64,000 nt of DNA, taken from assembly GCA_964429215.1 (NCBI GenBank), contig CAYSAY010000002.1, positions 33,812 through 97,811 of the forward strand. The letters run 5' to 3'. A model generated the notes under the pieces. The model was given only the letters and a program-made list of their open reading frames with translations, had not been told where the DNA came from and made no database searches. The position numbers and the translations under genes are program-made. Below, piece after piece: positions 2,610 to 24,770 of this stretch. Within the stretch, counting starts at the first letter, position 1, and every line of letters starts with the position of its first letter. Source of the DNA: an uncultured Gammaproteobacteria bacterium (GTDB taxonomy: Bacteria > Patescibacteriota > Microgenomatia > UBA8517).

Positions 2610-4160
2610 TCAATCCTTTTCAAACTTTTGCAAATATTTTCTTAAAAACTCCCTCCAGTCATGATGGTCATCGTCATCGTGACCTTCATCATGCTTATTT
2701 TTGTTACCTATATTTATTTTGTAAGTGTCAGTATCTCTTCCGCTTAATTTACCTGAATACTTTTCTGTTTCCACTTTTCCATTTAAGTCATATATAAAAC
2801 TATCCAAATTATACTTTCCTTTAAGTCCTGTTATTTTTAATTTATATTTACCATTTGCAGGTTTTTCAAAAAGTAATATTTTTACAGGATTGCCTGATTT
2901 GATAGAAGGGTTTGTTAAGCTATTAATTGGTTCTTCAACAAAAACTTGAGTTGGGGCAAGTAAACCGTTTGATGTATATAATTCTAAGTTAAACTGCGGT
3001 TCAATTACAAACATCATATATGAAAGATCAGAGTGGGTTGGTGTAAAAGTATTTATGGCAAGAAAATTATTTCCATATGGAGTTAAGTCATTACGGCTTG
3101 CATATCCAGGGTCATTAATAGTATAAGTTTCGCCAATTTTTCCTGTGGCTACAATAAAATGTCCAGGCTCTTTTAAAATTGCTGGTCTATTATTATTTAA
3201 TTCATTGTCAAGATTTGCAGTTGTTGCATCTAGCCTTTTATATTCAAGTGTTGGAGTTAATAAAGTATCGTGTTGCTTTGTATACCTACTTACTGCAAGC
3301 TAATTAATAAGTCCATTTCTAATGTATCCATCCTTTTGGTTTTTAAGCCAAGTGTTAAGTGTATCGGGCATAACGTTGTGTCCGTGGTATCTCAAAACCA
3401 TAACAGCGGAAGTTAGAGCGCAACCAAATTCATGAATAGTGTTATTAGTAAACCCATATATTTTATTTTTCCACGGTTCACTATATTGTTTTAAACTCGG
3501 AACAGTTAAAAATGGACTAGCTGATGGTATTGCAGACGCAGTCGGTGAGGGAGAAGGCGAAGGCGACGGCGATGGACTTGGGGATGAGGAAGGCGAAGGA
3601 CTCGGTGTTGGGCTAGGTGATGCTGTGGGTGTAGGAGTTGGAGTGATTGTGGGTGCTATAGTTGGCGTTGTAGTCGGTGTTGGAATATCTCCTGTTCGTA
3701 TGCAATCTGTCCATGTAGCTTCATCAGGAGTTGTTCCAGGAATTACACCATACATAATTCTAATTGAGTCATAAGTTGGTGGAGTATCAAAATCAAGTCC
3801 ATATGTTCCATTTGGTAAAACGTGGTAAGTTCCTAGTGGAATTTCGTTACTCCAATAATGACCTGTTCCGCTGTTTTGTTTGCATGCAAGTGATCCATTT
3901 CCGTTTTGGTCTGCACAAAACGGATCAGAAAAGTTATTCCACGGTATTCCCAAATCAGGCGAACTGACATTTGTAATTAAAGATTGACCGTTAGCACGTA
4001 AATATTGAACAACTGCTAATTTATCAACATCTGTTGTTATGGCAAAATCAAGTCGATTGCTGTTAATTGTTGCTTCGTAAGTACAAGTGGATGCAAAGGT
4101 CGATGAAGGAAATACTGCATATAAAATGAGTATCAAAATCAATGTAATTTTGTATCTCAT
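2610..4160 (-). pseudogene. secreted C39-like cysteine peptidase with Pro/Ser/Thr linker, interrupted by one in-frame TAG at 3300-3302
   Basis: ORFs 3300..4160 and 2610..3017 are in the same frame. The 94 codons between them (3018-3299) contain no stop; checked codon by codon. Signal peptide MRYKITLILILILYAVF, a (P/S/T)n linker, catalytic Cys in GCALTSAVMVLRY before the TAG and His in GHFIVATG after it. Context NGLIN-TAG-LAV suggests an original TGG (Trp). Confidence 0.6.
3540..3690. repeat. low-complexity GC-rich repeat encoding the (Pro-Ser/Thr)n linker of the peptidase gene
   Basis: ggcgaaggcgacggcgatgg... on the + strand encodes TPTPTPTASPSPTPSPSPSSSPSPSPSPSPSP on the - strand. Confidence 0.5.
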
Positions 4161-4253
4161 AGCAAATCTATTAATTAAGTTTGAAATTTTTTTAAGCTGC
4201 TGTCAATAGTCATTATTGCTAGACTGCAAGCACTTTTATTATGTGGCTATTAA

Positions 4254-5048
4254 ATGTATGATATGAAAATGAAACTAAATATAATTGGAAAACTGATGTA
4301 CTTACACGAAATTGTTTGGAATTATACAGATTGGTATAAATTGTTGATAAATCGATTGCTTCACAATGTTACTACTATTCTTAGGATGAGAAATGGTATT
4401 TTTATCTTAGGAGGAAATAGAAGTTTGATCGTAGATTTAGCCTCCGAGATATTTATTCACGAAGTATATAATCCAAAAGAGATGAAAATAAATCCAGGGG
4501 ATTTAGTTATTGATATCGGTGCAAATATTGGGGTATTTGGACTATATGCATCTAAAAACTTAGCCTCTATGGTATACGAGATTGAACCATTGGTTGAAAA
4601 TATACCTATAATTAAATCAAATTTTGAGAAGAATAATTTCAAAAATCTAAAAATTCTGAATGTTGCTGTTTCAGACAAAGATGGTTCAGACAAACTATTT
4701 ACTGCAGATTTAGATTCACATGGTCTACTTTTTGATCATAACGTCCAAGGAGGTTTAACTAAATTTAAAATCGTTAAAACAATGACTTTGGAAACCATAA
4801 TTAAAAAAAATAAAATAAATCATATTAATTTTTTAAAAATGGACTGCGAAGGAAGTGAGGGAAATATTTTTAAATCCACCAAATCAAAGACATGGAAAAT
4901 GATTGATAAGGTTGCAATTGAGTATCATGATAACGTGTCGGTTTTGAATCACCAAAATATAGTTAGTAAGCTGACTTCAAATGGGTACAAAACAAGGATT
5001 GTAGAAAACGATAATTTTTTTGGATATATATATGCATGGAGAAATTAG
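4254..5048 (+). CDS. FkbM family methyltransferase
   Basis: VIDIGANIGVFGLYAS motif typical of Methyltransf_21/FkbM; 264 aa. Confidence 0.65.
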   Translation: MYDMKMKLNIIGKLMYLHEIVWNYTDWYKLLINRLLHNVTTILRMRNGIFILGGNRSLIVDLASEIFIHEVYNPKEMKINPGDLVIDIGANIGVFGLYASKNLASMVYEIEPLVENIPIIKSNFEKNNFKNLKILNVAVSDKDGSDKLFTADLDSHGLLFDHNVQGGLTKFKIVKTMTLETIIKKNKINHINFLKMDCEGSEGNIFKSTKSKTWKMIDKVAIEYHDNVSVLNHQNIVSKLTSNGYKTRIVENDNFFGYIYAWRN

Positions 5049-5051
5049 ATT

Positions 5052-5801
5052 GTGAATTTTACTATGAACAGAAATAGAGATTTTTATAATGGTTTTCATA
5101 AATCCTCAACACTCCAAACGAAATTGATTTCTGATAACAATTTCACTTATGAAACAACACTAAAAGTTTTTAATAAACACATAAAATCATCAGATACTGT
5201 TTTGGATGTGGGATGCGGAATTGGTGTTATAAGTTTATATTATGGAAATAAATGTAAATCTGTACATGGAATTGATATTTCTGACAAGGCAATTACATTT
5301 GCAAATGAAAGTGCAAAAAAACTTAAACTTAACCAAAAGATAAAATTTGAAGTTGTTGATTTTCCAAACAAATACTTAGCAAAGAAGTTTGACAAAGTTA
5401 TTTTTTCTGAAACTTTGGAACATATTGAAAATGAAGATTTGGCTCTTCAGTCAATTTCTAAAATGTTGAATAAAAATGGTAATCTGGTTGTTACTGTCCC
5501 ATCTGTCAATTCATTTATCTATAGAATAGGCTTAGCGAAGAAGTTTGATAAAGAAGTGGGGCATTTAAGAAGATACACAGTCGATTTTTTAAAGTCAAGA
5601 TTAGAAAAGAATGGTTTTAAAGTTTTAAAAATTTATAAAAGAGAAGGACTTGTTAGAAATATTCTATTTTTTATAAAACCATTTGGATTTTTAATAAAGT
5701 TTATGAAAGGTTTTATTGGTAAATTTGTTATTTGGTTAGATTCACAAACAATTAAACTTGTTGGGGAATCTCAAATTATAATTGTTGCTACTAAAAAATA
5801 A
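5052..5801 (+). CDS. class I SAM-dependent methyltransferase
   Basis: Motif I VLDVGCGIGVISL, motif post-I DKVIFSETLEH, LVVTVP; 249 aa. Confidence 0.65.
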   Translation: MNFTMNRNRDFYNGFHKSSTLQTKLISDNNFTYETTLKVFNKHIKSSDTVLDVGCGIGVISLYYGNKCKSVHGIDISDKAITFANESAKKLKLNQKIKFEVVDFPNKYLAKKFDKVIFSETLEHIENEDLALQSISKMLNKNGNLVVTVPSVNSFIYRIGLAKKFDKEVGHLRRYTVDFLKSRLEKNGFKVLKIYKREGLVRNILFFIKPFGFLIKFMKGFIGKFVIWLDSQTIKLVGESQIIIVATKK

Positions 5802-5803
5802 TT

Positions 5804-6604
5804 ATGAAAATTCTTTTTTTGTCCAAATATCCAACAACACATATAGGAGGGGTGGAGAGGCATGTACGCGAGGTAGGGTCAAGGGTACAGGGTTCAGGGA
5901 ATAGTTTAAAAACAATAACAACTGAAGATATAAATCCACCTAAGATTAAATATTTTGGACTGTTGTATATCTGGTATTGGTTATTTAAAAATCGGGATTT
6001 AATCACAAGGTGTAACCTTGTGCATATACACGATGTTTTTATTTGGTACTTACCATTTAGATTTCTATTTCCAATTAAAAAAGTATATATAACTTTCCAT
6101 GGTTGGGAGGGAAAATTTCCTCCAACACTATGGTCGATTTTCAATAAACGAATTGCAAATAAATTAACAAATGGAAGTATTGCAGTAGGAAAATATATTG
6201 AGAAGTGGTATGGAATTAAGGCAGATTATGTTATTTATGGTGCAGCACAGCCATTAGCTGTTGGTCGTTCGTCATTAGCCAAAGCAAAAAACAATTTAGT
6301 TTTCTTAGGCAGAAAAGATGCAGATACAGGTTATTTTGAATTTTTAGTATGGTTAAAAAGTCGACCAGAGTTGAAAGTTAAATATGTAACTAATGAACCA
6401 AATCCAGAGAAATTTCTTCAAACTGCAGAGTATTGTGTACCCTCCGGATATCTTTCATATTTAGAAGCTAAAAATATGGGTTGTAAAATAATGACCTTTG
6501 CTAATAATCCATTAAAAGTTGATTATTGGAATGAAATTAAGCAACTTAAATCAATTCCAACTTGGGACGCCGTTTCCGATGTCTATTTAAAATTGTGGAA
6601 GTAA
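5804..6604 (+). CDS. compact glycosyltransferase, family 4-like
   Basis: N-terminal GGVERHV and C-terminal YCVPSGYLSYLEAKNMGCKIMT resemble the GT4 PS..EgfglvllEAmA motif. Confidence 0.5.
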   Translation: MKILFLSKYPTTHIGGVERHVREVGSRVQGSGNSLKTITTEDINPPKIKYFGLLYIWYWLFKNRDLITRCNLVHIHDVFIWYLPFRFLFPIKKVYITFHGWEGKFPPTLWSIFNKRIANKLTNGSIAVGKYIEKWYGIKADYVIYGAAQPLAVGRSSLAKAKNNLVFLGRKDADTGYFEFLVWLKSRPELKVKYVTNEPNPEKFLQTAEYCVPSGYLSYLEAKNMGCKIMTFANNPLKVDYWNEIKQLKSIPTWDAVSDVYLKLWK

Positions 6605-6649
6605 ATGTGGTGTTATTCGATAACTAGTAATATAATTCAATTAAATTAA

Positions 6650-7180
6650 ATGAAGAAAGTATTATTTCTACAAAGTTGGTTTTCAAAAGTTACAGATAAT
6701 TGGTATCCATGGCTTGAAACAGAGTTAAAGAAAAAGGGATTCGATACTTATTTTCCCGATATTCCAGAAATGAGAAAAGATGTGCCTGATATGGCTAAAA
6801 TTTTAAAATTTATTGAGTCTTTGAAAGTAATCGATAAGGATACAATTATAATCGGACACAGTCTTGGTAATTTGTTAGCAATGAGATTGGCTGAAAAGTT
6901 TAAATATAAACAAATGGTTTTAGTTTCAGCTTGGGACTATGATGATCTTTGTGAGGGACACGTATTGTTTTGGAAAAATAAAATCAATCATTCCAAGATT
7001 AAAGATCACGTCAAAAATATCACTGTAATTCATTCTGATAACGATCCATATTACACAGCAATTTCTGCAGAGGATACAGCAAAGAGATTAAATGCTAAAT
7101 TAATTATTATTAAAGGTGGTGGACATTTTGGTTCAAAAGAGGGAACAAAAAAGATGCCTGAGATATTAAATCTTTTGTAA
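6650..7180 (+). CDS. serine hydrolase of the YdeN/RBBP9-like alpha/beta-hydrolase family
   Basis: 176 aa with GHSLG nucleophile elbow, a later Asp (HSDNDPY) and His (GGGHF), in the order typical of this family. Confidence 0.55.
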   Translation: MKKVLFLQSWFSKVTDNWYPWLETELKKKGFDTYFPDIPEMRKDVPDMAKILKFIESLKVIDKDTIIIGHSLGNLLAMRLAEKFKYKQMVLVSAWDYDDLCEGHVLFWKNKINHSKIKDHVKNITVIHSDNDPYYTAISAEDTAKRLNAKLIIIKGGGHFGSKEGTKKMPEILNLL

Positions 7181-7189
7181 AACTCTATT

Positions 7190-8173
7190 ATGAAAATAAA
7201 AACAAGTGAACTTCAAAATTTGGTTATGAAAGCCATGACCAAAAAGTATGATGAAGAATATTCATCAAGGATGACAGAACTTGTTATGTTCGGTGAGTTG
7301 TCAGGAAGAGTTTCCCATGGACTAGTTAGATTACTTGTTGGGGGAAATATACTTTTACAAAACCCGATTGGTAAAGCTGAAATAACAAAAGTAACAAAAC
7401 TGTCGTCAATGATTGAAGGAAATGGAAACCCTGGAATGCTGGTTGGTTCGTTAGCATGCGACGAAGTTATTAGAATCGCAAAAGAAAATGATTTTGGGAT
7501 AGTTGGTACTAAAGGTTCGTTCACATCATCAGGTGCATTGACTTATTATCTTGAAAAAATTGCTAAAGAAAATTTAATAGGAATTGTAATGGCAGAATCT
7601 CCAATGAGTACTCCACCAAATGGTGGAATAGAGCCTTTGTTTGGTACTAATCCTATTTCATTTGGTATACCTGCAAACCCTAAACCAGTAATTTTTGATA
7701 TGGGGACAACTGCTATTACTTTTGGTGAACTGCTTAATGCTAAAGCTCTAGGAAAGACAATCCCTGAAGGAGTTGCTCTTGACTCAGCGGGAAATCCTAC
7801 AACTGATCCTGAAAAAGCAATGGAAGGTGCCACTCTTCCATTTGATAAATCATATAAAGGTGCAGGACTTTGTATGATGGTTGAAATACTTGCTGGTACT
7901 TTACCACATTCTGGATATACAGGAATTGACTTAGATAATGGGTGGGGAAGTATGTTTTTGGCATTTTCGCCAAAATTATTGGGTGATGTTGAAGAATTCA
8001 AAAATCGAATGGAAAAAATGATAGATAAAATTAGAAATTCTAAAACAAAAGATGGAAGTAAAGTTAGAATTGTTGGTGAGAAAACATTGGACACAAGAGA
8101 TAAAAATTTAAAATTAGGAGAGATAGAAATTGCTGATAGGATGTATGAATTGTTGGTTGAAGCAATAAAATAG
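7190..8173 (+). CDS. malate/L-lactate dehydrogenase family (Ldh_2) oxidoreductase
   Basis: GELSGRVSHGLVRL (GxxSHGxxR) and overall length/pattern of the Ldh_2 family. Confidence 0.6.
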   Translation: MKIKTSELQNLVMKAMTKKYDEEYSSRMTELVMFGELSGRVSHGLVRLLVGGNILLQNPIGKAEITKVTKLSSMIEGNGNPGMLVGSLACDEVIRIAKENDFGIVGTKGSFTSSGALTYYLEKIAKENLIGIVMAESPMSTPPNGGIEPLFGTNPISFGIPANPKPVIFDMGTTAITFGELLNAKALGKTIPEGVALDSAGNPTTDPEKAMEGATLPFDKSYKGAGLCMMVEILAGTLPHSGYTGIDLDNGWGSMFLAFSPKLLGDVEEFKNRMEKMIDKIRNSKTKDGSKVRIVGEKTLDTRDKNLKLGEIEIADRMYELLVEAIK

Positions 8174-8196
8174 AGTTATTTGATATAATTCTCCAT

Positions 8197-9078
8197 ATGA
8201 CTCCAAGAAAAAATACCTTAAACGTTTCTGTTTGTGTGACGATATTTAATGAAAGCAAAGAAACAGTTAAAAGTCTTCTTGATGCACTAAATTCTCAAAC
8301 TTTAAAACCAGATGAAATTATTATAATTGATGCAAAAGATTATAATAATTGTTCGCGGTCTAAGGGTAGAAATATTGCAATTGGTAAAGCTAGAAATGAA
8401 ATTATTGCCATTACTGATGCGGGGTGTGTACCACACAAGGATTGGCTGACCCGCCTATGTTCAAAATTTCAAATAGGCGAGGCAGGGAAAAATATAGTGG
8501 TTGCGGGCGGTTATAACATGGTTACTAGGAATAATTTTGAAAAAGCCGAGTCAGTATTTTTAGGAGTTATTACTAAAAATATGGATAAAGATTATATGCC
8601 GTCTGCTAGATCAATGGCTTTTACTAAAAGCATATGGAAAAAAGCAGGAGGATTCCCTGAAAAACTTGGAAATACTGCAGAGGATACATTGTTTAATGTG
8701 GAGTTGGTTAAAGCTGGAGCAAAATTTGTGACTGCTAAAAAAGCAGTTGTTGACTGGTATTTGCCAAAGTCGATTAAAGATTTTGCATTAAAGATATATG
8801 GATATGCAAAAGGGGATGCAGAGTCGAAGATTTGGTGGCATCCTGTTAAAAAGTGGAGAACTCATAATTTAAAAATCATGACAGTTTTTGCGCGATATGT
8901 GTTGGGTATTGGATTGTTTTTTGCGAATAGTTACGTCTTCGTACTATACGCTACTCTCTATACGCTATACGCTGCCAGCAAAGCTGGCCTTTGGGGTATT
9001 CCTTTGCAATTTGTTTCTGATTTTGCAGTCATTGCAGGCTTTTTACGAGGTATACTTAAACTATGCGTAAGAATTTGA
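8197..9078 (+). CDS. glycosyltransferase family 2
   Basis: VSVCVTIFNE...IIIIDA..., DAG motif, C-terminal TM helices. Confidence 0.65.
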   Translation: MTPRKNTLNVSVCVTIFNESKETVKSLLDALNSQTLKPDEIIIIDAKDYNNCSRSKGRNIAIGKARNEIIAITDAGCVPHKDWLTRLCSKFQIGEAGKNIVVAGGYNMVTRNNFEKAESVFLGVITKNMDKDYMPSARSMAFTKSIWKKAGGFPEKLGNTAEDTLFNVELVKAGAKFVTAKKAVVDWYLPKSIKDFALKIYGYAKGDAESKIWWHPVKKWRTHNLKIMTVFARYVLGIGLFFANSYVFVLYATLYTLYAASKAGLWGIPLQFVSDFAVIAGFLRGILKLCVRI

Positions 9079-10265
9079 TTTGGGCTGTTTTTGCAAGGGG
9101 AGTATTTCGTGTACTAACTATTGCAAAGACCTTTATTTTAGCAAGAATTCTTAGCCCTTCTCAGTTTGGCGTATTTGGAATAGCCTTTTTGGTTTTAGGT
9201 TTGCTTGAAATGTTAACTGAAACTGGTGTTAACGTAGTGCTTATTCAACAGGACAAAAAGATTGATGATTATATTAATACTGGATGGGTTGTATCCATAA
9301 TCAGAGGAATTTTAATTTCTTTATTGATTGTCATATTAGTTCCAGTAATTACTTTATTTTTCAATTCTCCAGAATCAAAAAATATTTTATATTTAACAGC
9401 AATAATTCCATTCTTACGAGGGTTTATTAATCCGTCTGTGGTTAAATATCAAAAAGACTTGGAATTTAATAAAGAATTTGCGTTTAGATCTGCAATTATA
9501 TTTGTTGAAGTTTTTGCAACAATAGTTATTGCATCAATTTTAAAGAGTGAAAATTCACTTGTTTTTGGGTTAATTATCTCTGTGTTACTTGAAATTGTTC
9601 TTTCTTTTGTATTTTTAAAGCCAAGACCAAAATTTGAATTTGATTACAAGAAATTGTCTAATATGATTTCTAAAGGTAAGTGGATGACGGGAGCTAAAAT
9701 ATTTGATTATTTATTTACACATGGTGATGACATTGTCGTTGGAAAACTTTTGGGGAGTTTTAGTTTAGGTATTTATCAGCAAGCTTACAAAATATCAAGT
9801 TTACCTATTTACGATATTGCTGAAACATTTCAAAAAGTCACATTTGCGACATACTCTAAATTAATTTCTGAAAAGAAGAAGGTGATTTCTGTTTATATTA
9901 AAACTCTTATAGCAACCTCTGCAGTTATTATTCCATTTGGAATTATGATATACATATTTCCAAATCAAATAGTGTTGCTTCTTTTAGGTGAAAAGTGGTT
10001 AAGTGCCGTACCTGTTTTAAAGGTGCTTGCAGTTTTTGGAATAATAAAAACTTTAGCAAATAGTGTTTTTCCGATACTTTTAGCATATAAAAGACAAGAC
10101 TTGTTAATGATATTAACATTAATAGGAATTATTGGCTTGGGTATCACAATTTACCCATTAACTTTAAAATATGGTTTAGTAGGCGCAGGGATATCTACAA
10201 TTATTGGAAGTTTAGTAATGATCCCACCTGCTTATTATTGGTTGAAAAAAGTTACTCATGAATAG
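9063..10265 (+). CDS. polysaccharide biosynthesis protein / Wzx-type flippase
   Basis: 400 aa, about 12 TM segments, typical Polysacc_synt architecture; overlaps the upstream GT2 end. Confidence 0.65.
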   Translation: MRKNLIWAVFARGVFRVLTIAKTFILARILSPSQFGVFGIAFLVLGLLEMLTETGVNVVLIQQDKKIDDYINTGWVVSIIRGILISLLIVILVPVITLFFNSPESKNILYLTAIIPFLRGFINPSVVKYQKDLEFNKEFAFRSAIIFVEVFATIVIASILKSENSLVFGLIISVLLEIVLSFVFLKPRPKFEFDYKKLSNMISKGKWMTGAKIFDYLFTHGDDIVVGKLLGSFSLGIYQQAYKISSLPIYDIAETFQKVTFATYSKLISEKKKVISVYIKTLIATSAVIIPFGIMIYIFPNQIVLLLLGEKWLSAVPVLKVLAVFGIIKTLANSVFPILLAYKRQDLLMILTLIGIIGLGITIYPLTLKYGLVGAGISTIIGSLVMIPPAYYWLKKVTHE

Positions 10266-10279
10266 TTTCTATATGAAGT

Positions 10280-14610: not shown

Positions 14611-15114
14611 ATGCAAAAAAAAGTTGTTGTAAACAATATTATGCAAAAAGATTTTGTATACTATTTGACGGAAAAAATTGGTCATAATTTTGATCCAGAT
14701 TTTAAACCAGAATTAACACCACAAGAAATGCTTGCACTCGGAGTTTTTGGTGGTAAATATATGACAGATTGCAAAAATGAATTCCCTGAAGATTAGTATA
14801 AAACTGCTAAATTATGCCATGAAAAACATGATTCAGAATTAAATTTTTTTAAAGTAAATGCTAGTCAGCCACTATCTGTTTGGATTAAAAAAGGATGGAT
14901 AAATGAAGATGATCCAAGAGGTTGGTTTCAGTGGTATTGTAGATATTTTATGGGAAGAAGAACACTTGATGACGAAAGACAAATAAAGAGGTGGAAATCT
15001 TTTAAACGGCATGTATCACAAGTTAAAATAAATTGTAAAAAAGGTGATTTAAGTTGCAGAATTGTACAAAGACAAGCACTACTTCATTGGGCATATGATT
15101 CAAGAGTGATTTAG
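14611..15114 (+). pseudogene. conserved hypothetical protein (GWFQWYCRYFMGRR motif) interrupted by in-frame TAG at 14794-14796
   Basis: The 61 aa ORF continues in the same frame for 105 stop-free codons to TAG at 15112-15114; verified codon by codon. Context FPED-TAG-YKT is compatible with an original Trp codon. Confidence 0.5.
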
Positions 15115-15121
15115 GAAATAT

Positions 15122-16218: not shown

Positions 16219-16533
16219 ATGACAATTGAAGATAGGTTACGCGAGATAAGGGGATTAGCTTCACCAAGAAAAATTAATGCGGTTATTCACCCGGTTGAAT
16301 CAGATGCTAACACAATATTCAGTTCTTTACCTGACGATGTAAAAGCAAGATTAGATAGAGGGTCTGGTAAATTAGAAAGAAAAAAAAGATTTCTTAAAAA
16401 TTTGCAATCATTAGTTGAAGGTGGTTTTTCAATATCTCATTTAGTTCAAATGGATGACGAATGTGTAGATAATAAAGGTAGAATTAAAGAAGATAGGCTT
16501 AGAGATATAATCGCTGGCAAACATGACGATTAA
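16219..16533 (+). CDS. hypothetical protein
   Basis: 104 aa, charged, no motif. Confidence 0.35.
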   Translation: MTIEDRLREIRGLASPRKINAVIHPVESDANTIFSSLPDDVKARLDRGSGKLERKKRFLKNLQSLVEGGFSISHLVQMDDECVDNKGRIKEDRLRDIIAGKHDD

Positions 16534-17483
16534 TTTAAATATCTTTTAATTTTTAAATCTTCAAGTAAACTAATTTCAATTTTTAATTTTTCTTTAAAAC
16601 TAAATATTGCTTCATTTTCACCAAATTTATCAAATTCTAATCTTGCCGGGATGTTATCCTTTATCATTTTTGGGAAATCTCCTAATCTATCTCCTGTTAA
16701 AATTAAATGAATTCCTGCATATGCGCCCATTGAAGATAATCTTTTTATTGCATCCTCAATTTCTACACTGTATAGGTTGAAAACTGTACCTATGTAAATA
16801 ATTACAGGAAATTTTTGAGATTCATTTTTATTCAGTATTTCAATTCTTCTATCTATTTCACGAGATAGCCATCTTAGTGCAGATAATGATTTGTCAGTTT
16901 CGTTAATTATTGGAGCAAGAAGATGGGGAATATTATTAAATTTACTAAGATTGTTTGTTGCGTCGTCGATGATTAGTCTGACATCTTCTAAAGTAAACTT
17001 AGATAATAAAAATAATAAATATGTTTTTAGGAATTCATATTTTTTACTGATAATATTACCTGTAACTATTAAATTACCAATTTTACTAAAATCTGTGTTT
17101 AGATACGGTATATCAAGTGGATTGTTTAGAGATTTGACCTCGTCTGGCAAGAAATCAGCAATAATTGGATTATATTTTTTAGTTGGATCAATAAGTTCTT
17201 CTTTTTTCTCAATAATTAACATTTCACTATTCTTTTCCTTAAATTCCTTAAAAGATTTAATTAGTACCTCTCTTGGTCTACTACTACCATCAGAAGGAGT
17301 AAGTACTCCTGTGCTTTGTAATTGATCTATAAGTCTTGCGGCTCTTGCGTATCCGATCGAAAGTCTTCTTTGAAGTAGTGAAGCAGAAGCCCTATCGTAT
17401 TGAATACATGTCTTTACTGCTTCTTCTAATAAATTGTCTGGATCTACTGAAATTCCGGGAACTGATGAATATATATCTATCAT
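16530..17483 (-). CDS. FtsK-like protein with N-terminal gamma (KOPS-binding wHTH) domain and degenerate motor domain (Walker A/B lost)
   Basis: N-terminus DNLLEEAVKTCIQYDRASASLLQRRLSIGYARAARLIDQLQSTGVL matches FtsK gamma. Downstream LEDVRLIID..IPHLLAPI...ALRWLSREIDRR and AGIHLILTGDRLGDFPKMIKDNIPARLEF match the FtsK motor. Walker A is TGNIISKK and the Walker B position reads IIYIGTV instead of DE. Confidence 0.55.
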   Translation of the reverse strand: MIDIYSSVPGISVDPDNLLEEAVKTCIQYDRASASLLQRRLSIGYARAARLIDQLQSTGVLTPSDGSSRPREVLIKSFKEFKEKNSEMLIIEKKEELIDPTKKYNPIIADFLPDEVKSLNNPLDIPYLNTDFSKIGNLIVTGNIISKKYEFLKTYLLFLLSKFTLEDVRLIIDDATNNLSKFNNIPHLLAPIINETDKSLSALRWLSREIDRRIEILNKNESQKFPVIIYIGTVFNLYSVEIEDAIKRLSSMGAYAGIHLILTGDRLGDFPKMIKDNIPARLEFDKFGENEAIFSFKEKLKIEISLLEDLKIKRYLN

Positions 17484-17565: not shown

Positions 17566-17817
17566 ATGGAAAAAAGAAAATTTGAAGAAGTTGGTTTAAA
17601 TGTTGCTACTAATCATAGAGAGGCTTCTTCTGAGGAAATTCTTGTGGCAATGGCCGTAGCAGGTCGTGCTATTAGCCCTAAAGAATTAGCAGCAATGTCA
17701 GGATATCCACTAACGACCGTAAAAAAGTGTTTAAATATTTTGAAAAGAGAAGCTTTAGTTGAAAAACACAGGGATGGACTGAGATTTTATTATTCACTGA
17801 GAGGAAAGCAAAAATAA
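17566..17817 (+). CDS. small winged-helix DNA-binding protein
   Basis: 83 aa; ISPKELAAMSGYPLTTVKKCLNILKREALVEK..GLRFYY is typical of wHTH. Confidence 0.4.
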   Translation: MEKRKFEEVGLNVATNHREASSEEILVAMAVAGRAISPKELAAMSGYPLTTVKKCLNILKREALVEKHRDGLRFYYSLRGKQK

Positions 17818-17820
17818 TTT

Positions 17821-18123
17821 ATGACTGAAGATCTAAGAATGATAGCGTGTGTACAAGGCAATTTAAATACACAATTGCCAGAAGCAGCTTTTCGCATTTC
17901 ATATGAATCAGGAGGTATACCGATTACTCCGTGTGCTGGATGCCAATTTAAAACTCATTTAGAAAGAATTGCTAAGATTGCAGAAGAAATAGCCAGAGCT
18001 AAAACGATAGGAGTTGCGTTAAAACAACATGAGAAACATGCAGTACTAGTTTTTGAACATAAAGAAAGACTGCATGTTAGATGTACCTGTCGTTGTTGTA
18101 CTGAAGTAGTTAAGGAAGAGTAG
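17821..18123 (+). CDS. Cys-rich hypothetical protein
   Basis: 100 aa; CAGCQFKTH ... RCTCRCCTE clusters suggest metal binding. Confidence 0.35.
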   Translation: MTEDLRMIACVQGNLNTQLPEAAFRISYESGGIPITPCAGCQFKTHLERIAKIAEEIARAKTIGVALKQHEKHAVLVFEHKERLHVRCTCRCCTEVVKEE

Positions 18124-18355
18124 AATTTAAAAAATTTAATCAAATACTGTAAAATACTCCATGGGAATAGAAAGCGAACGAGTTGAATATCAGTTAATTT
18201 AAAACCTGTATATAAAACTACCCCACAAGGGTGGGATTGTAGAAGCTGTATTGATTGAAAAGCCGAAAGTAAATTCAATTTCAATTGAAGAATTACTACT
18301 GAATTAGTTACTTCTGTTTGGAAATAGGTAAGCAAAAGTAAAATTTCATCTAAAT

Positions 18356-18697
18356 ATGGTGATGTACTATAATACCCAAATGCCAGAAATATTAAGATTG
18401 CCAGATTCAGGGCGCACAAATGAATTTTATGCTGATTTTACGTTGAAAGACGATGATGAATTTGTAGTGGTAACAGAAGGTTGGATATTTGCACCACATA
18501 GAGGTAATGAAATGATGGATATAATACAGTCCAAGCTCTCGTTATTAGCTCGTGATAGAAATAAGACCTTCATACATTTATATGAAGCCTCAACTATTGA
18601 AGGTAAAAAATTAGTTCAGCGAAATTCAAGATATAGCTATGTCGGAAGATCACATGCAGGTTATTCAGTTTATAAAGCTGTTTATGAACCAGAGTAA
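18356..18697 (+). CDS. hypothetical protein
   Basis: 113 aa ORF, no motif. Confidence 0.35.
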   Translation: MVMYYNTQMPEILRLPDSGRTNEFYADFTLKDDDEFVVVTEGWIFAPHRGNEMMDIIQSKLSLLARDRNKTFIHLYEASTIEGKKLVQRNSRYSYVGRSHAGYSVYKAVYEPE

Positions 18698-18709
18698 CAT
18701 TTTAGAACT

Positions 18710-18943
18710 ATGACAAACACAATTTTTACAAATAAGGCACTTTCAAAAATGAAAGATGTTGGACTTTCTGAATCCTTAGTGCTTGATGCTTTTAACTCCG
18801 GAATAGTTGAAAAGTGGTCTACTGGAGGTGGGTATAATAGTGTTAAAAAATATAATGGCTACGAAATTGGAGTTGCTTGGCTTCGAGACGAAAAAGGTGC
18901 ATACATAATCACTTCAGTTTGGAAAAGAGATAATAGGAGATAA
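18710..18943 (+). CDS. hypothetical protein
   Basis: 77 aa ORF. Confidence 0.3.
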   Translation: MTNTIFTNKALSKMKDVGLSESLVLDAFNSGIVEKWSTGGGYNSVKKYNGYEIGVAWLRDEKGAYIITSVWKRDNRR

Positions 18944-19003
18944 TCTTATTTGCAATTTATATAGTTGATCTTTCTTCTGTTTTGATCAAAGATCAGAATA
19001 GGT

Positions 19004-19390
19004 ATGAAAATTAGTCGTGACTCGGCAATTCAAATTTTAAAATATTGTGATAAACACAAAAAGTTTAATTTCCCATTCTTTGTAATGTGCAAAGAATATT
19101 CCCCAGAAGATGATGATTTTGTAGAAATTGGACCTGATGAATGGCAAGCAATTGAAGATGATGACACTTATCAAACATTTGAACTGTGGGAAAAACAGCC
19201 TCAATCAGATACAGAGATAATTTTAGATAGATTAAATATCTTAATTAAAAATTACAAAAAGTATTTAAAAAATGAAGCTTCAGATGACGAAAATTCAGAA
19301 TTGTCTGATTTGCATCAGTTCATCTCCGGCAAACTTGATGCATATGTAGAATGTAGAGATATAGTTTTAGAAATTAGTAAAGTTGTATAA
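19004..19390 (+). CDS. acidic hypothetical protein
   Basis: 128 aa, Asp/Glu rich. Confidence 0.35.
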   Translation: MKISRDSAIQILKYCDKHKKFNFPFFVMCKEYSPEDDDFVEIGPDEWQAIEDDDTYQTFELWEKQPQSDTEIILDRLNILIKNYKKYLKNEASDDENSELSDLHQFISGKLDAYVECRDIVLEISKVV

Positions 19391-19400
19391 TAGTTAAAAA

Positions 19401-20168
19401 ATGGATTTAAATTTTGATACAGCCTTGTTAAGTAATTATGTTAGTAATTCTCAAAAAGCAAGAATATTGACTGAAAAATGGACGTTAAATAATATTTATT
19501 GTCCTAGTTGTGGTGACTTTGTTAATGAATATGCAAACAATGCGCCCGTTGCTGATTTTTATTGCTCGAAATGTAATGAAGATTTTGAACTAAAATCGAA
19601 GTCTGGAAAATTTAACGCTTCAATTTCTGCAGGTGCATATTCTGAAATGATTAAAAGAATTAGTTCTAGAGAAAAGCCAAATTTTTTCTTTCTAGAGTAT
19701 GTTGCTAAGTTATTAAATGTGAATGATTTTTTCGTTGTCCCTAAACATTTTATTATCAAAGAAATTATCGAAGAGAGGAAACCTCTAAAAGAAACTGCAA
19801 AAAGAGCAGGTTGGGTAGGCTCAAATATAAAGTTCTCAAAAATACCAAAAGCAGGTCAGATATATTATGTAGAAAAAGGAATAGAAATTCCAAAACCAAT
19901 CGTATTGGAAAAGTGGCAAAAAACTGTATTTTTAAAGAAAGTTGATGATGTTAACGCAAAAGGTTGGATTTTGGACATTATGAATTGTATTGATTCTCTC
20001 AACAAAAAAGATTTTACTTTGCAAAATATATATGCTTTTGAAAACGATTTGTCTGTTATCCATCCTGAAAATAAAAACATAAAGCCTAAAATTAGACAGC
20101 AGTTACAATTCTTAAGAGACAAAGGCTATCTAGAATTTATCGAGGCTGGAAAATATCGACTGAGATAG
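19401..20168 (+). CDS. DpnI-like methylation-dependent restriction endonuclease (PD-(D/E)XK N-domain plus C-terminal winged helix)
   Basis: NSQKARILTEKW, CPSCG...NNAPVADFYCSKCNEDFELKSK, PNFFFLEY, and C-terminal IRQQLQFLRDKGYLEFIEAGKYRL closely resemble my recollection of the DpnI family. Confidence 0.6.
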   Translation: MDLNFDTALLSNYVSNSQKARILTEKWTLNNIYCPSCGDFVNEYANNAPVADFYCSKCNEDFELKSKSGKFNASISAGAYSEMIKRISSREKPNFFFLEYVAKLLNVNDFFVVPKHFIIKEIIEERKPLKETAKRAGWVGSNIKFSKIPKAGQIYYVEKGIEIPKPIVLEKWQKTVFLKKVDDVNAKGWILDIMNCIDSLNKKDFTLQNIYAFENDLSVIHPENKNIKPKIRQQLQFLRDKGYLEFIEAGKYRLR

Positions 20169-20203
20169 TTGACTTTCTTTCAAATTCGATCAATGATCAG
20201 AAT

Positions 20204-20407
20204 ATGGATGAAAAAATCAAAAAATTTCCAAAACATTCTTGTCAATTTTGTGGTTGTGAGCGTAAGTTAGTTGAAACAATTATAGATGATGAGTTTTTTT
20301 GGGATAAAGATGAACAAACATATCAGCCTGATAAGTTTACTGACATTTTTGAACATACTGGCAATAATCGCTGTGTACAGTGTGAAAAAGAATGGTCGGG
20401 TACGTGA
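20204..20407 (+). CDS. small zinc-ribbon protein
   Basis: 67 aa with CQFCGC ... CVQC pairs. Confidence 0.35.
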   Translation: MDEKIKKFPKHSCQFCGCERKLVETIIDDEFFWDKDEQTYQPDKFTDIFEHTGNNRCVQCEKEWSGT

Positions 20408-20441
20408 ATCTTCCGACTAGAAGGGTAATTGATCGCCAGAA

Positions 20442-21061
20442 GTGGTTAGGAATTTAATTTTAAGATATTCAAATGAAGGCGATAATTTGTTAGATCCAAT
20501 GATAGGTGGTGGTACAACTGCTATTGAAGCAAGGATTTTGAATAGGAATATAATAAGTATAGACGTTAATGCAAAAGCTGTTGAGAGAACTATTAAGTGC
20601 CTTCAATTTGATGCCCTAAATTCATCTGTACAAAGTGTGATGGTCGGAGATGCAAGAAACTTAAAAATAGTAAAGGACAAAAGTATTGATTTTGTGTTAA
20701 CTCATCCTCCATATGTAGACATTATAAAATATAGTGATGGCAAATTAGAAAATGATTTGTCTAATATTCATGAGATTGATAAATTCATAGTAGAAATTAC
20801 AAAGTAGCTAAAGAGTTATTTCGTGTACTAAAAAATGGAAAATATTGTGCTATTTTAATAGGCGATACTAGACGAAATAAAATGTATCAACCATTGGCTT
20901 TTAAAGTTATGGATGCATTTTTGAAAGTTGGATTTAAATTAAAAGAAGATATTATTAAAAAACAATTTAATTGTACTGCTACTGGTTTTTGGGTTAAAAA
21001 GTCTAAGGATTTAAATTTTTTGTTAATAATGCATGAACACCTATTTGTATTTCAGAAATAA
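20442..21061 (+). pseudogene. SAM-dependent N6/N4 amino-methyltransferase (DNA MTase-like), disrupted by a -1 frameshift near 20800
   Basis: Frame A: LLDPMIGGGTTAIEA (motif I), IISIDVN, IDFVLTHPPY (motif IV), then TAG at 20805. Frame C from 20801 continues KVAKELFRVLKNGKYCAILIGD...LLIMHEHLFVFQK to TAA at 21059-21061. The shift sits in the run acaaag. Confidence 0.55.
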
Positions 21062-21082
21062 ATTAATTTATAAAATCTTCAG

Positions 21083-21556
21083 GTGTATAATCGAGCCATG
21101 AGGAAAGTGGATGGGAATACTTTAAATGCCAGGATTGGGAGGCATGTTGAAGTGGAGATTGATATTAGAGAGAATTTGGCTTGGAATTTGATGATGCAGG
21201 TGGTTAGATTTTTTGTAGTTCCTGTTAAACTTTTTAATGAATACTTTACAAAATTTAAACTTTCCAAAACTTCAAGATTTTATAATTTAGTTAATTATCC
21301 ATTGTCTGATTATTTATTTAAAAAAACTATTGAAGCAGTAGTTATATTAGGACTATTTAGCATAGGATTATATGCATTTGAATTTGAAGAATTTCAGTTT
21401 ATTGTTGCAATGGTTTTAATTGCTTTAATATTATTTTTGCCGGCATTTTTAAAAATTTTGTTTTTGGCTTTTGTAATGCTTGTTGAGTTGATTGTGAGAA
21501 TTATTAAATCAATCTTTTTTACAGTTAAATCATTGGTTACTGAAAGGACTTATTAA
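21083..21556 (+). CDS. hypothetical membrane protein
   Basis: 157 aa, C-terminal hydrophobic helices; start uncertain. Confidence 0.3.
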   Translation: MYNRAMRKVDGNTLNARIGRHVEVEIDIRENLAWNLMMQVVRFFVVPVKLFNEYFTKFKLSKTSRFYNLVNYPLSDYLFKKTIEAVVILGLFSIGLYAFEFEEFQFIVAMVLIALILFLPAFLKILFLAFVMLVELIVRIIKSIFFTVKSLVTERTY

Positions 21557-21570
21557 ATATAAATTTGAAG

Positions 21571-21622
21571 TTTGTATACATGTTTTAAAAGATGTATACA
21601 AAGTACACCAGTTTGTATACAT
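21571..21622. promoter_or_regulatory. three copies of 11-nt motif TTTGTATACAT (two direct at 21571 and 21612, one inverted at 21592) about 20-21 nt apart, followed by TATATAAT -10-like box
   Basis: Read directly; all three centre on GTATAC. The array lies in the 85 nt upstream of the DUF3800 gene start at 21642. Confidence 0.4.
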
Positions 21623-21641
21623 TAGGGTATATAATTAATAT

Positions 21642-22226
21642 ATGGATAACAACCTGTTATTTATTGATGAATCTGGTGACCATAGCTTAAATAATATTAA
21701 TTCTGACTTTCCAATATTTGCATTATTAGGATTAATAATTGAAGAATCAAGTTATAAAATACTAATTAATGAAGTTAATGACTTTAAAAATAAATATTTT
21801 AAGACAACTAGTGTCGTATTACATAGTAGAGAAATAAGAAAATGCGAAGGCGTGTTTGCAATCCTTTTTGACTTAAAAGTTAAGGAGGAATTTTATAAGG
21901 ATTTAAATTCAATTATTACAAATACAAACTTTATGCTTGTTTCTTCTGCAATACTAACTTTAGCAAAGCGTTATAACGAGCTTTTATATAAAGGTAGTGG
22001 TGTTGTCTCTTCAGGAAGATTTGTAAATAGATATAATCAGGAATTGTTATTTAAACGCAAAAGCCAAAATGATATAGGATTACAATTAGCTGATTTGTGT
22101 GCATACCCAATAGCAAGACATGTGTTGTATCCAGAAGAGCCCTATCCGGCGTTTGAAATAATTAGGAGTAAAATTCGAAACAATCGTGGAAAAGTTGAAG
22201 GTTTTGGAATTAAGATATTTCCTTAA
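21642..22226 (+). CDS. DUF3800 family protein
   Basis: N-terminal LLFIDESGD and C-terminal GLQLADLCAYPIAR are characteristic of DUF3800. Confidence 0.55.
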   Translation: MDNNLLFIDESGDHSLNNINSDFPIFALLGLIIEESSYKILINEVNDFKNKYFKTTSVVLHSREIRKCEGVFAILFDLKVKEEFYKDLNSIITNTNFMLVSSAILTLAKRYNELLYKGSGVVSSGRFVNRYNQELLFKRKSQNDIGLQLADLCAYPIARHVLYPEEPYPAFEIIRSKIRNNRGKVEGFGIKIFP

Positions 22227-22290
22227 AAAAACAAAAAGCCTTCTTTCGAAGACCTTTTGCCGATCGGGGACACCCCGGTCCATTCTTATT
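22227..22290. terminator. bidirectional terminator region between convergent genes
   Basis: A stem in aaaaagccuucuuucgaagaccuuuug and the GC hairpin cggggacaccccg. On the - strand the hairpins are followed by a U-run (ttttgttttttt). Confidence 0.45.
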
Positions 22291-22328
22291 ATATACCACA
22301 TCTGTCAAGTTTAGCAAACTAGATCAAA

Positions 22329-23702
22329 TTATATCAATTCCTTTAATTTTTCCCAGATTTTGACCATGGCGAGGGTGTCTAGGCCACAGTATTCTAATAA
22401 TTCTTTTGCTTTTGATTTGTCTGTTGTGTGGATTAACTCCCACCAAACTAGCATTGCTTGATCGCCTTTGTTTACAGCCAACTTTTTATATGAGAGGTCT
22501 GGAACCATTACAGGTAAAACATTTTTGATTGACCAACTGCCTAGGAAGTCTGGATGAATGTAGAGTTCTTTGTTAATGAAATCTGCTAGGTCTATCATTC
22601 TACTATTTACATCATCCAAAAATTCTTTGTATTCTGGATATAATCCTGCAATGTCTTTATTTCTTTCAAATTCAAAAGTTTTATTCCAGACTACTACTGA
22701 AGCAGCATCTTTAATGTCCTCTTTTAGTTTTTTAATTAAATTTACTGATGGGTCACCTAATTCAGTTTCTAAATATTCTTGATGCATCATTGTTCCGTCA
22801 CTCTCTACTATGTGCAATGAATACTGGAAAACCATATGTTGATATGGCTTGTAGCCTTTATAAATTGGAATTGCTAGCGGGTAAGTTTCATAATCTAAAA
22901 AGTAAATTGGAAAAACAAAAGTATTTAAAAAGTCTGATAATCCTGTTGCATTTAAATATGGAGTATTTGATTTAATTATATTTTTGATTAACGTTTGTTT
23001 AGGTGAAAGTGGAAAACTGTCTGGGATATCTTTGATTTCTAAAATCCTTGAATCTTTTAACTCTCTTTTCTTCTGTGGGTGGAGGGCTGGGATATGGTAA
23101 ATTGATTTTTCTGGTAAATTTGGGTGACAAAGTGAGATACATGGGCAGGACTTAGGATCTAAACATGTTTCTACATGGTCTGGAGTGTCTTTACCTGCCA
23201 CTTTTTCTGCTTCCATCATTTTCTCCTGTATTTCTATGGTTAGTTCCATTACTTCATTTGTAACGTCGTTTATTTGGAAGAGTTCTTTGATATTTAGTGA
23301 ATCTGATAATATATATTCTTTGTTTAAATTAACTACATATACTTTATTTATTTTAATTGTTTTACTTTTTACAATGTATTGGAAAGTGGCATCATATAAA
23401 TGTTCTTTTTCTACTTTGGTGGTACTTTTAACTTCATATAAATCGTAGGTATCATCAGTATTTTTAATTAATGCATCTGACCTTGATTCAAAACCATTTG
23501 AAATAAAGGTTTCTTGCCAAATTGCATGGGGGAGAAGTTTGTGGGCTAGAGTTTCAACTTCATAACCTTGCTTCATTAAATGTTGGTCATATACTGATGG
23601 AGTAAGGTTATTTAATTTGTTGTGCTTATCTGCCCAGAGATGCATAGGGGACTTTAAAAAAAGTAGAAAGTCTGATTTTGCGATCATTTTAATATTATAC
23701 AA
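22329..23702 (-). CDS. DUF2779-like predicted nuclease (PD-(D/E)XK-like N-terminus, RNase H-like C-terminus)
   Basis: MIAKSDFLLFLKSPMHLWADKH start, DLYEVKS, CxC pair, and FLDYETY resembling a DEDD-like exonuclease motif. Confidence 0.5.
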   Translation of the reverse strand: MYNIKMIAKSDFLLFLKSPMHLWADKHNKLNNLTPSVYDQHLMKQGYEVETLAHKLLPHAIWQETFISNGFESRSDALIKNTDDTYDLYEVKSTTKVEKEHLYDATFQYIVKSKTIKINKVYVVNLNKEYILSDSLNIKELFQINDVTNEVMELTIEIQEKMMEAEKVAGKDTPDHVETCLDPKSCPCISLCHPNLPEKSIYHIPALHPQKKRELKDSRILEIKDIPDSFPLSPKQTLIKNIIKSNTPYLNATGLSDFLNTFVFPIYFLDYETYPLAIPIYKGYKPYQHMVFQYSLHIVESDGTMMHQEYLETELGDPSVNLIKKLKEDIKDAASVVVWNKTFEFERNKDIAGLYPEYKEFLDDVNSRMIDLADFINKELYIHPDFLGSWSIKNVLPVMVPDLSYKKLAVNKGDQAMLVWWELIHTTDKSKAKELLEYCGLDTLAMVKIWEKLKELI

Positions 23703-23745
23703 CTTTTAATTAATTCTATTGACTTCGGTTTGAGTTTGGGTTAAA

Positions 23746-24770
23746 TTGAATAGAATGACCATTCCTAAAGAAATGATAATTTACAAAACTCCAAATGGTG
23801 ATGTAAAAGTTGAAATTCTATTAAGAGGCGAAAATATCTGGCTTACTCAAAAGACAATATCTAAATTATTTGATTGTTCTATAGATAATGTATCGCTTCA
23901 TTTAAAAAACATTTTTAAGGAAGGAGAACTGTCAGAGAATTCAGTTGTCGAGGATTACTCGATAACTGCTGAAGATGGAAAAAGTTACAAAACAAAACAT
24001 TATAACTTTGATGCTGTCATAGCTGTTGGTTATAGAATTAATTCAATAAAAGCTACACAGTTTAGAATTTGGGCAACCAAAATAATAAAAGAATATATAA
24101 TTAAAGGCTTTGTCATGGACGATGAGAGGTTGAAAGATCCAGACTATATTTTTGGCAAAGATTATTTTGAGGAACAACTGGCAAGAGTTAGGAATATTCG
24201 TTCAAGTGAACGAAGAATGTATCAAAAAATTACTGATATTTATTCAGAATGTAGCGCTGATTACGATTCAGATAGTGATATTACTAAAAAGTTTTTTGCT
24301 ACAGTTCAAAATAAACTACATTTTGCAATTACAGTCAAACAGCAGCTGAAATAATATGTAAAAGAGTGGACAGTAGAAAAAAAGATTTAGGATTAACTAC
24401 TTGGAAAAATGGGCCAGTGGGCAGTATTCGAGAAACTGATGTAATTATAGCTAAAAATTATTTAAATGAAAGCGAACTAGATCAATTGAATAGAATAGTT
24501 ACAATGTATTTAGATTATGCAGAATTCCAAGCAAAAAACAGAGTTGCTATGTATATGAAAGACTGGATTGAAAAATTAGATGCATTTCTTCAATTTAATG
24601 AAAAAAACATACTTTTTGATTATGGGAAAGTGAGTAATAAAGTTGCAGAAAAGTTGGCAATTAAAGAATATAAAAAGTATAAGATTGCAAAAGATAGAAA
24701 TTATTTTTCAGATTTTGATAATGTTGTTAAAAAATATCTAAATTATCAAAAAAATGAAGTTAAAATTTAA
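23746..24770 (+). pseudogene. RhuM family protein, split by a 1-nt deletion in an A-run near 24337-24339
   Basis: ORF1 23746..24354 (WLTQKTISKLFDCSIDNVSLHLKNIF..., FRIWATKIIKEY) is the RhuM N-half. ORF2 24366..24770 (LGLTTWKNGPV..VIIAKNYLNE) is the C-half in another frame. The other frame across the junction reads TAAEIICKRVDSRKKDLG, which fits the family. Confidence 0.6.

Follow-up and report, generated by a model that had tools for sequence, protein, structure and literature searches.

Four disrupted accessory genes in a genome segment of an uncultured Woesebacteria/Microgenomates bacterium, one of them a methylase relic beside a DpnI-family gene

We analysed a stretch of 64,000 nucleotides (nt) of contig CAYSAY010000002.1 (assembly GCA_964429215.1, positions 33,812 to 97,811 of the forward strand; hereafter, the window) from an uncultured bacterium of the candidate phyla radiation (CPR). 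Four genes are disrupted between positions 2610 and 24770: one for a secreted C39-like peptidase (gene 1), one for a conserved protein of 167 amino acids (aa; gene 2), a DNA methylase gene next to an intact gene for a DpnI-family restriction endonuclease, and a RhuM-family gene. An earlier reading, made from the letters without database searches (the sequence-only reading), had described two ambers and two 1-nt shifts; all four disruptions are present in the sequence and recur in other assemblies. With a probability of about 0.8, we consider them to be genuine mutations, fixed recently, that abolished the function of accessory genes in an uncultured member of the Woesebacteria/Microgenomates, brought about by ordinary decay and, in the case of the methylase, by the swap of a defence cassette. 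This placement is suggested by GatB, which is 73–87% identical to proteins from metagenome-assembled genomes (MAGs) of Candidatus Woesebacteria and the Microgenomates group and from some generically labelled third-party assemblies; the named homologues of the gene 1 peptidase likewise come from Woesebacteria. The genes, lesions and flanks are listed here, with L006, L016 and L017 denoting sister contigs and ORF an open reading frame.

2610 to 4160, minus strand: pseudogene of a secreted C39-like peptidase (gene 1), one 516-codon frame with a single internal TAG
3300 to 3302, minus strand: TAG in place of Trp (TGG to TAG) in gene 1, in the block GYIRNGLIN-W-LAVSRYTK
14611 to 15114, plus strand: pseudogene of a conserved 167-aa protein without family annotation (gene 2), one 167-codon frame with a single internal TAG
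14794 to 14796, plus strand: TAG in place of Trp62 (TGG to TAG) in gene 2; W62 is invariant in 43 of 43 homologues
16530 to 17483, minus strand: FtsK/SpoIIIE-like gene, the conserved left flank of a variable defence island; 64–79% aa identity to the flank in L006, L016 and L017
17484 to 24753: variable island interval, compared in gene content with L006 13616–18158, L016 1332–5998 and L017 2889–8085
19401 to 20168, plus strand: intact gene for a DpnI-family methyl-directed restriction endonuclease of 255 aa (PF06044 and PF17726)
20204 to 20407, plus strand: 67-aa ORF with two CxxC pairs, Zn-ribbon-like, between the DpnI gene and the methylase relic
20412 to 21061, plus strand: relic of a PF01555 methyltransferase gene, the second and DpnA-like methylase of a DpnII-type cassette, with about 33 codons missing from its 5' end
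20418 to 20420, plus strand: TAG at a Trp codon of the relic (TGG in both intact homologues in the nt alignment)
20430 to 20432, plus strand: TGA at a Trp codon of the relic (TGG in both intact homologues in the nt alignment)
20801 to 20805, plus strand: 1-nt deletion in the relic, ACAAA-GTAGCT against ACAAAAGTAGCT or ACAAAGGTAGCT in the intact genes (nt alignment)
23746 to 24770, plus strand: RhuM-family (PF13310; PADLOC candidate PDC-S05) pseudogene, in ORFs of 202 and 134 aa
24333 to 24340, plus strand: site of the RhuM 1-nt deletion (ACAGTCAAAC), likeliest GGT to G-T, repair of which restores ...AIT-G-Q-TAAEII...
24754 to 25959, plus strand: Trypsin_2 serine-protease gene, the conserved right flank of the island; 74–75% aa identity to L016 and L017

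Comparison contigs were found by exact-protein look-ups in public assemblies. Matches came from two Logan runs (ERR3094292 and ERR3094302) and three ENA assemblies (ERZ27247785, ERZ27247817 and ERZ27247837, the last of which includes the 241,893-bp contig k141_273057), made with two assemblers, and all matching loci were 100% identical to the window, without gaps, over 1.5–21 kb. The 286-aa fragment of gene 1 up to its amber was called as a gene on five contigs from five assemblies, and the 61-aa fragment of gene 2 up to its amber on three further contigs. The methylase deletion was also present in Logan contig L001 (run ERR3094302), and the RhuM halves were called as genes on two large contigs. 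Because the identical sequence recurs across runs, assemblies and assemblers, an assembly-specific error is unlikely. Homopolymer indels and consensus miscalls in a MAG, one of the explanations offered by the sequence-only reading, would draw on the facts that the source is a metagenome assembly and that two of the lesions are 1-nt deletions beside short A runs. That reading had placed both shifts in A-runs; they do lie next to such runs, yet these are just 3–4 bases long. The longest runs in the window, eleven 8-base A/T runs, lie elsewhere, and 11 of 11 are in ORFs that stay open. Since the shifts sit at 3–4-base runs while the 8-base runs stay in frame, homopolymer error is very unlikely. 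The k141_ names are in the style of MEGAHIT, which suggests a short-read origin of the three ENA assemblies; MEGAHIT short-read assemblies are not prone to homopolymer error. Moreover, the methylase relic alone carries four separate lesions. Taken together, these observations make an artefact of any such kind highly improbable.

The methylase gene is more heavily damaged than it had first appeared. The 1-nt shift described by the sequence-only reading stands, with an ORF at 20442–20807 that resumes in another frame and ends at 21061, but it is not the sole lesion. The gene has also lost about 33 codons at its 5' end and contains a TAG and a TGA, both at Trp codons and both upstream of position 20442, where that reading had put the start. 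With these four lesions, no intact frame of about 249 aa is left. What had been overlooked was a multiply damaged, 5'-truncated relic lying beside DpnI, a setting that gives this disruption a specific cause. Nucleotide homology between the relic and the sister methylase gene runs from 20412 (about codon 34) to the stop codon at 88–89% identity (L016 and L017), compared with only 70–75% for the flanking core genes and their sister counterparts. Intact methylase homologues are 249–250 aa long and 92–94% identical in aa to the reconstructed protein, which is without about 41 of their N-terminal residues. A tblastn alignment had extended the homology upstream to 20358; we rejected this extension, as the nt alignment there has only chance-level identity. 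On its own branch, the relic has accumulated 23 synonymous and 9 non-synonymous codon changes; the branch exceeds both intact ones in length and in its share of GC-to-AT changes, a pattern that would fit a short period of neutral decay.

Upstream of the relic, the DpnI-family gene is intact. Both of its domains align over their full length, residues 1–180 with positions 1–182 of the 183 of PF06044 (E 1.7e-70) and residues 186–253 with positions 2–69 of the 70 of PF17726 (E 2.8e-33), and the protein also matches positions 1–254 of 256 of PADLOC mREase_II (E 1e-96). Its residues 1–253 align with residues 4–255 of the 257 of R.DpnI of Streptococcus pneumoniae (PDB 4ESJ/4KYW; E 4.3e-79), a homology that predicts cleavage of Gm6ATC only. 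The 67-aa ORF that follows had no family hit in library scans, PADLOC included. Homology to the sister methylase gene starts just past this ORF, which probably came in together with DpnI.

Between the FtsK-like and Trypsin_2 genes, sister contigs L016, L017 and L018 hold a three-gene cassette of a D12 methylase, an endonuclease and a PF01555 methylase. The first gene encodes a MethyltransfD12 protein of 318 aa (E 2.6e-70 against pneumococcal DpnM, PDB 2DPM), the second a DpnII endonuclease (PF04556) in L017 and L018 and a DUF6996/6997 protein in L016, and the third the 249–250-aa PF01555 methylase. The window relic is homologous to these PF01555 methylases, which in L017 and L018 share an operon with the DpnM-like D12 protein and DpnII; family membership and operon partners suggest that the lost methylases were specific for GATC. 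No homologue of DpnM or DpnII was found by tblastn anywhere in the 64-kb window, where the only related methylase is the dead one. Thus, alternative cassettes stand between shared flanks, with DpnI in the window and the DpnII-type set in L016 and L017. The island ends at the Trypsin_2 gene in these three; L006, compared on its left flank only, has an EcoRI-methylase/GmrSD set beside the FtsK-like gene and otherwise keeps the gene order of the window from the peptidase through the FtsK-like gene at about 70% nt identity. In content, the window island comprises DpnI, DUF3800, DUF2779 and RhuM; that of L006 the EcoRI-methylase, GmrSD/HNH, a 737-aa protein and DUF2779; that of L016 RhuM and a DpnII-like system; and that of L017 DpnII and an SMC/AAA ATPase. 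By this comparison, the interval after the FtsK-like gene is a hotspot for defence-cassette swapping in this lineage.

We propose that a DpnII-type cassette lost its first two genes and the 5' end of its third when a DpnI cassette took their place. As DpnI cuts methylated GATC, an active GATC methylase could not coexist with it. Any leftover methylase would therefore have had to be dead, and the truncation would already have made it so. The truncated third gene would have stayed as a dead relic and then gained the two Trp-to-stop changes and the 1-nt deletion. The direction of this swap is inferred. The window contains 166 GATC sites against 176–189 expected, and so is not depleted of them; this fits the swap model because a DpnI genome, presumably unmethylated, need not avoid the site.

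Two known systems resemble this arrangement. In the pneumococcus, the gene order is dpnM–dpnA–dpnB, the cassettes replace each other cleanly, and DpnI is followed by dpnD. The sister cassettes have the order methylase–endonuclease–methylase instead; the window junction lies inside the third gene and left a relic, unlike the clean pneumococcal exchange; and the small gene next to the window DpnI is the 67-aa Zn-ribbon ORF without a family match, not dpnD. What the window shares with the S. pneumoniae dpn locus, which alternates between DpnI and DpnII (PMC4263131; DpnI structure, PMC4117772), is the use of alternative DpnI and DpnII cassettes at one position between conserved flanks, made up of clear homologues (E 4e-79 for DpnI to 4ESJ and 3e-70 for the sister DpnM-like protein to 2DPM). 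In Neisseria, dam carries an inserted DpnI-like gene, drg, 'resulting in dam truncation'; drg is toxic to dam+ Escherichia coli (PMC4269198, PMC516771). The likeness to Neisseria drg/NmeBII (PMC516771, PMC4269198) is that a DpnI-family, Gm6ATC-dependent endonuclease stands where relatives hold a GATC methylase system and that a truncated methylase gene persists alongside it, the two activities being mutually exclusive (drg is toxic in dam+ cells). The displaced system there is a solitary dam, whereas in the window it would be a three-gene DpnII-type cassette. The window relic is the second, DpnA-like methylase (PF01555), not a D12-class Dam, and carries extra stops and a frameshift, and its host is a CPR bacterium. 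The locus thus adds a CPR bacterium to the known cases in which DpnI and a GATC methylase prove incompatible after cassette exchange. It would extend the DpnI/DpnII-type exchange of pneumococcus and Neisseria to a defined hotspot within a defence island of Woesebacteria, an uncultured CPR lineage with small genomes, where the exchange left a datable relic and so provides a small, concrete case of defence-system incompatibility driving pseudogene formation.

The RhuM-family gene, near the right end of the island, is split into ORFs at 23746–24354 and 24366–24770 in different frames. These match positions 1–132 and 144–249 of the 252 of the PF13310 profile, and positions 6–198 and 209–331 of the 335 of PDC-S05, and no one reading frame holds a full-length PF13310 match. 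The window copy is like the RhuM/PDC-S05 family in that its two halves match end to end and that it sits in a defence island; it differs in being frameshifted and is no intact member. The L016 island has an intact RhuM gene at another place, just 40–45% identical. The sequence-only reading had attributed this break to a 1-nt shift inside an AAA run. The shift is there, and its position in the run is probably wrong. Two one-base repairs would restore the frame, ACA-G[G]T-CAA-ACA (giving ITGQTAAE) and ACA-GTC-AAA-[A]CA (giving ITVKTAAE). RhuM homologues read A-[IV]-T-G-[HQ]-T-A-A-E at this place; in the 34 that have the motif, the first variable position was occupied by G 23 times and never by V, and GQ occurred six times. 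Because homologues carry G and never V there, the loss of a G is probably to be favoured over slippage in the A run, the two models being not fully separable. Among long RhuM cluster representatives (P0266–P0415), 21 of 49 lose homology of the C-terminal half right after ...NKLH[FY]A[IV]T, and P0267–P0269 look out of frame from this motif onward. Either RhuM genes are often frameshifted near the site of the window lesion, or the choice of representatives enriches oddities.

We also considered whether the two shifted genes might be switched by slipped-strand mispairing, as in the phase-variable defence genes envisaged by the sequence-only reading, or have their halves joined by programmed −1 frameshifting. 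Phase variation is common in defence islands, and both RhuM and the methylase belong to one; in addition, at the methylase site an A-AAG lies directly ahead of the stop, which makes single-tRNA slippage conceivable. However, the tracts at the two sites have 3–4 bases, whereas phase-variable loci typically have tracts of 7 or more. No long homopolymer or short tandem repeat is present at either shift site, and no tract-length polymorphism was seen between assemblies, all overlapping contigs being identical and ungapped. Neither junction (ATTACAAAGTAG and ATTACAGTCAAACAG) contains an X XXY YYZ heptamer, and rejoining the frames could not rescue the methylase, with its 5' end lost and two stops upstream. 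We therefore regard switching or programmed frameshifting as exceedingly improbable, and the loss-of-function reading is retained for both genes.

Genes 1 and 2 lie outside the island, and each is interrupted by one TAG. Intact gene 1 would encode 516 aa with a signal peptide, a Pro/Thr/Ser linker, a Peptidase_C39_2 domain at residues 219–351 (PF13529/PF03412) and a C-terminal beta-rich tail. It has 25 homologues of about 500–545 aa, and the position of the stop is W in 17 of 17 that could be aligned. The TAG is codon 287, between the catalytic Cys region (GCALTS) and the conserved His of GHF(I/V), and the catalytic Cys and His of C39 are therefore not on one polypeptide. Because the stop parts these two regions, the 286-aa product should be inactive. 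Gene 2, by comparison, belongs to a family of more than 8000 homologues, the best 120 of which are 69–87% identical to it and span Patescibacteria, Woesearchaeota, Deltaproteobacteria, Bacteroidales and others; the family has no match in Pfam, NCBIfam, PHROG, PADLOC or PDB. The broken gene thereby points to a very widespread and very conserved family that lacks annotation. The comparison with sister genomes that the sequence-only reading had put forward as a check returned intact orthologues of genes 1 and 2 in L006 and of the methylase in L016 and L017. The gene 1 orthologue in L006 is syntenic and 506 aa long; sister contigs hold the intact, syntenic copy of gene 2 downstream of a PDDEXK_1 gene, and the L006 copy has 167 aa.

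Past its stop, gene 2 retains every family-invariant residue. Identity to the nearest homologues is 85–90% after the stop and 79–84% before it, and the ratio of non-synonymous to synonymous substitution rates (dN/dS) against the sister is 0.06 after and 0.05 before the stop, with a dS that is saturated (>1), so that the test is insensitive. Because the post-stop parts are conserved as well as the pre-stop parts, the ambers in genes 1 and 2 would be recent relative to the split from the sister, as far as a test with saturated dS can tell. Among 5.8 billion proteins there was no intact allele above 71% identity for gene 1 or above 87% for gene 2. A 41-nt pattern over the gene 2 site, with TAG or TGG allowed, gave zero matches in GTDB species representatives and JGI metagenome contigs; the lineage is therefore absent from the scanned GTDB and JGI collections.

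Such intact frames raise the question of whether TAG is read as an amino acid. In a greedy set of 69 long ORFs of the window, the stops are TAA in 46, TAG in 14 and TGA in 9. Of the 14 TAGs, 12 are genuine stops and two the premature ambers; the genuine ones include those of GatB and DpnI, whose ends coincide with the ends of their homologues. As the sequence-only reading had it, TAG serves as a normal stop at 7190..8173, 9063..10265, 19401..20168 and 27291..27986, all of which do end in TAG, and eight more long ORFs do the same. Because TAG ends long genes at the usual ends of their homologues, it is a stop codon in this genome and there is no genome-wide recoding, again in agreement with that reading.

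Translation of these two TAGs could still occur locally, by an amber suppressor tRNA, near-cognate read-through or editing, leaving the genes partly functional. This would explain why each amber is the sole defect in an otherwise perfectly conserved ORF, why gene 2 past its stop keeps its invariant residues and a dN/dS of 0.06, and why the search for intact alleles found none of either gene above the identities given. Against this, the 12 long ORFs including GatB are normally terminated by TAG, the two sites have no common downstream motif, and the dN/dS test has low power owing to the saturated dS. No tRNA with a CUA anticodon is present among the three tRNA genes of the window, which are Thr(CGU), Gly(CCC) and an intron-containing one best read as Asp(GUC). 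In addition, the dead relic has a Trp-to-TAG change beside a Trp-to-TGA change, from which it follows that Trp codons are simply mutating to stops. On balance, translation of the ambers is very unlikely. A stricter form of this idea, in which leaky ambers are usefully read through as Trp or another residue by a suppressor tRNA encoded elsewhere or by near-cognate decoding, seems to us highly unlikely; if true, a small-genome CPR bacterium would keep two strongly constrained genes as leaky amber alleles, which would account for the otherwise flawless genes and for the lack of an intact allele of the lineage in public data.

If, as we prefer, the ambers are inactivating, ordinary gene decay under GC-to-AT-biased mutation would be sufficient to produce them. 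It would comprise the two TGG-to-TAG nonsense mutations in otherwise pristine genes and the 1-nt deletion in the RhuM-family gene of the defence island. Each of the two ambers needs a single G-to-A transition, and all four point stops, those of the relic included, are G-to-A changes at TGG. GC-to-AT transitions make up 19 of 40 substitutions on the relic branch, compared with 4 of 20 and 6 of 29 on those of the two intact genes, in a three-taxon polarisation that is ambiguous. Three of the four Trp-to-stop sites read ATTGG before mutation (3300–3305, 14791–14796 and 20427–20432), whereas AT precedes only 16% of the TGG codons of the window. Separately, ATTACA stands directly before both 1-nt deletions (20796–20801 and 24328–24333), a post hoc observation that is probably chance.

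A single mutagenic episode, whether a mutator phase or attack by an interbacterial DNA-deaminase toxin, could have made such a cluster of GC-to-AT stops, as suggested by the four of four G-to-A changes, the three ATTGG contexts and the GC-to-AT enrichment of the relic branch. However, bacteria in general mutate with a bias from GC to AT, and a genome of 32% GC should show it. About 44% of the single transitions that can turn a codon into a stop start from TGG here, so that four of four has a probability of about 0.04, reckoned post hoc. The mutated G also varies in codon position (TAG and TGA), and the two deletions do not fit a deaminase. We therefore set aside a deaminase or mutator signature, the GC-to-AT excess being what a new pseudogene in an AT-rich genome would show and its polarisation ambiguous, and judge a single episode decidedly improbable. 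Ongoing decay of accessory genes, which the sequence-only reading had listed among its explanations, accounts better for lesions that recur between assemblies, consist of GC-to-AT changes at Trp codons and 1-nt deletions, and fall in accessory or defence-associated genes.

Four broken genes among about 28 in 22 kb is above the 1–5% taken as typical for bacterial pseudogenes, but two of the four belong to a hypervariable defence island, one can be traced to a specific cause, and the limits of the interval were chosen post hoc. The other 39 kb of the window showed no obvious break, at a coding density of 0.82–0.99; this is a weak test, as the first 24 kb, with the broken genes, scores 0.80–0.93. 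In having single inactivating lesions in intact accessory genes, a GC-to-AT spectrum and an enrichment in a variable defence island, the four resemble ordinary bacterial pseudogenes, from which the only notable difference is the unusually conserved family of gene 2.

Several points weigh against our interpretation. Recurrence was judged from assembled contigs of two Logan runs and three ENA assemblies, and the RhuM site is confirmed on only two of these contigs, both large. The assemblies may share one study or site, and some of the ERZ assemblies may derive from the Logan runs, so that the independent read sets number at least two and possibly not five. GATC specificity and DpnI activity are predicted from family membership and operon context, and the relic could in principle have arrived already dead. 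Two genes that are flawless but for one codon are also the expected outcome of leaky read-through. Finally, ATTGG at three of four sites hints at a context-specific mutation process, although this was noticed post hoc and is probably chance.

In annotation, each of the four loci is best labelled a pseudogene, neither merged nor 'repaired', and the fragments of the methylase gene should be left out of any tally of active modification enzymes. Apart from the exchange hotspot and the gene 2 family, the lesions have little significance beyond annotation.

Other parts of the window contain further features. Positions 1–1052 reach 1052 bases past the start of the otherwise exactly matching 241,893-bp ENA contig, so that the window derives from another and longer assembly of this organism; GC is slightly higher there (0.37), and the segment has an odd minus-strand ORF of 177 aa. 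In the intron-containing tRNA gene, which ARAGORN missed, the intron belongs to group I (88.5 bits against Rfam RF00028).

34126 to 34387, plus strand: intron-containing tRNA gene, exons 34126–34161 and 34348–34387, intron 34162–34347 (RF00028)

Splicing was modelled with the rules that the 5' exon ends in U and the intron in G. The product is a 76-nt tRNA-Asp(GUC) with G at the discriminator position; a brute-force search through many other splicings left Asp(GUC) as the only one that satisfies both end rules. Further on, at 29141–31007 (plus strand), a Bro-N-like protein (PADLOC PDC-S13, E 3e-115) is encoded directly upstream of a DUF2130 protein, and the two may form another candidate defence pair.

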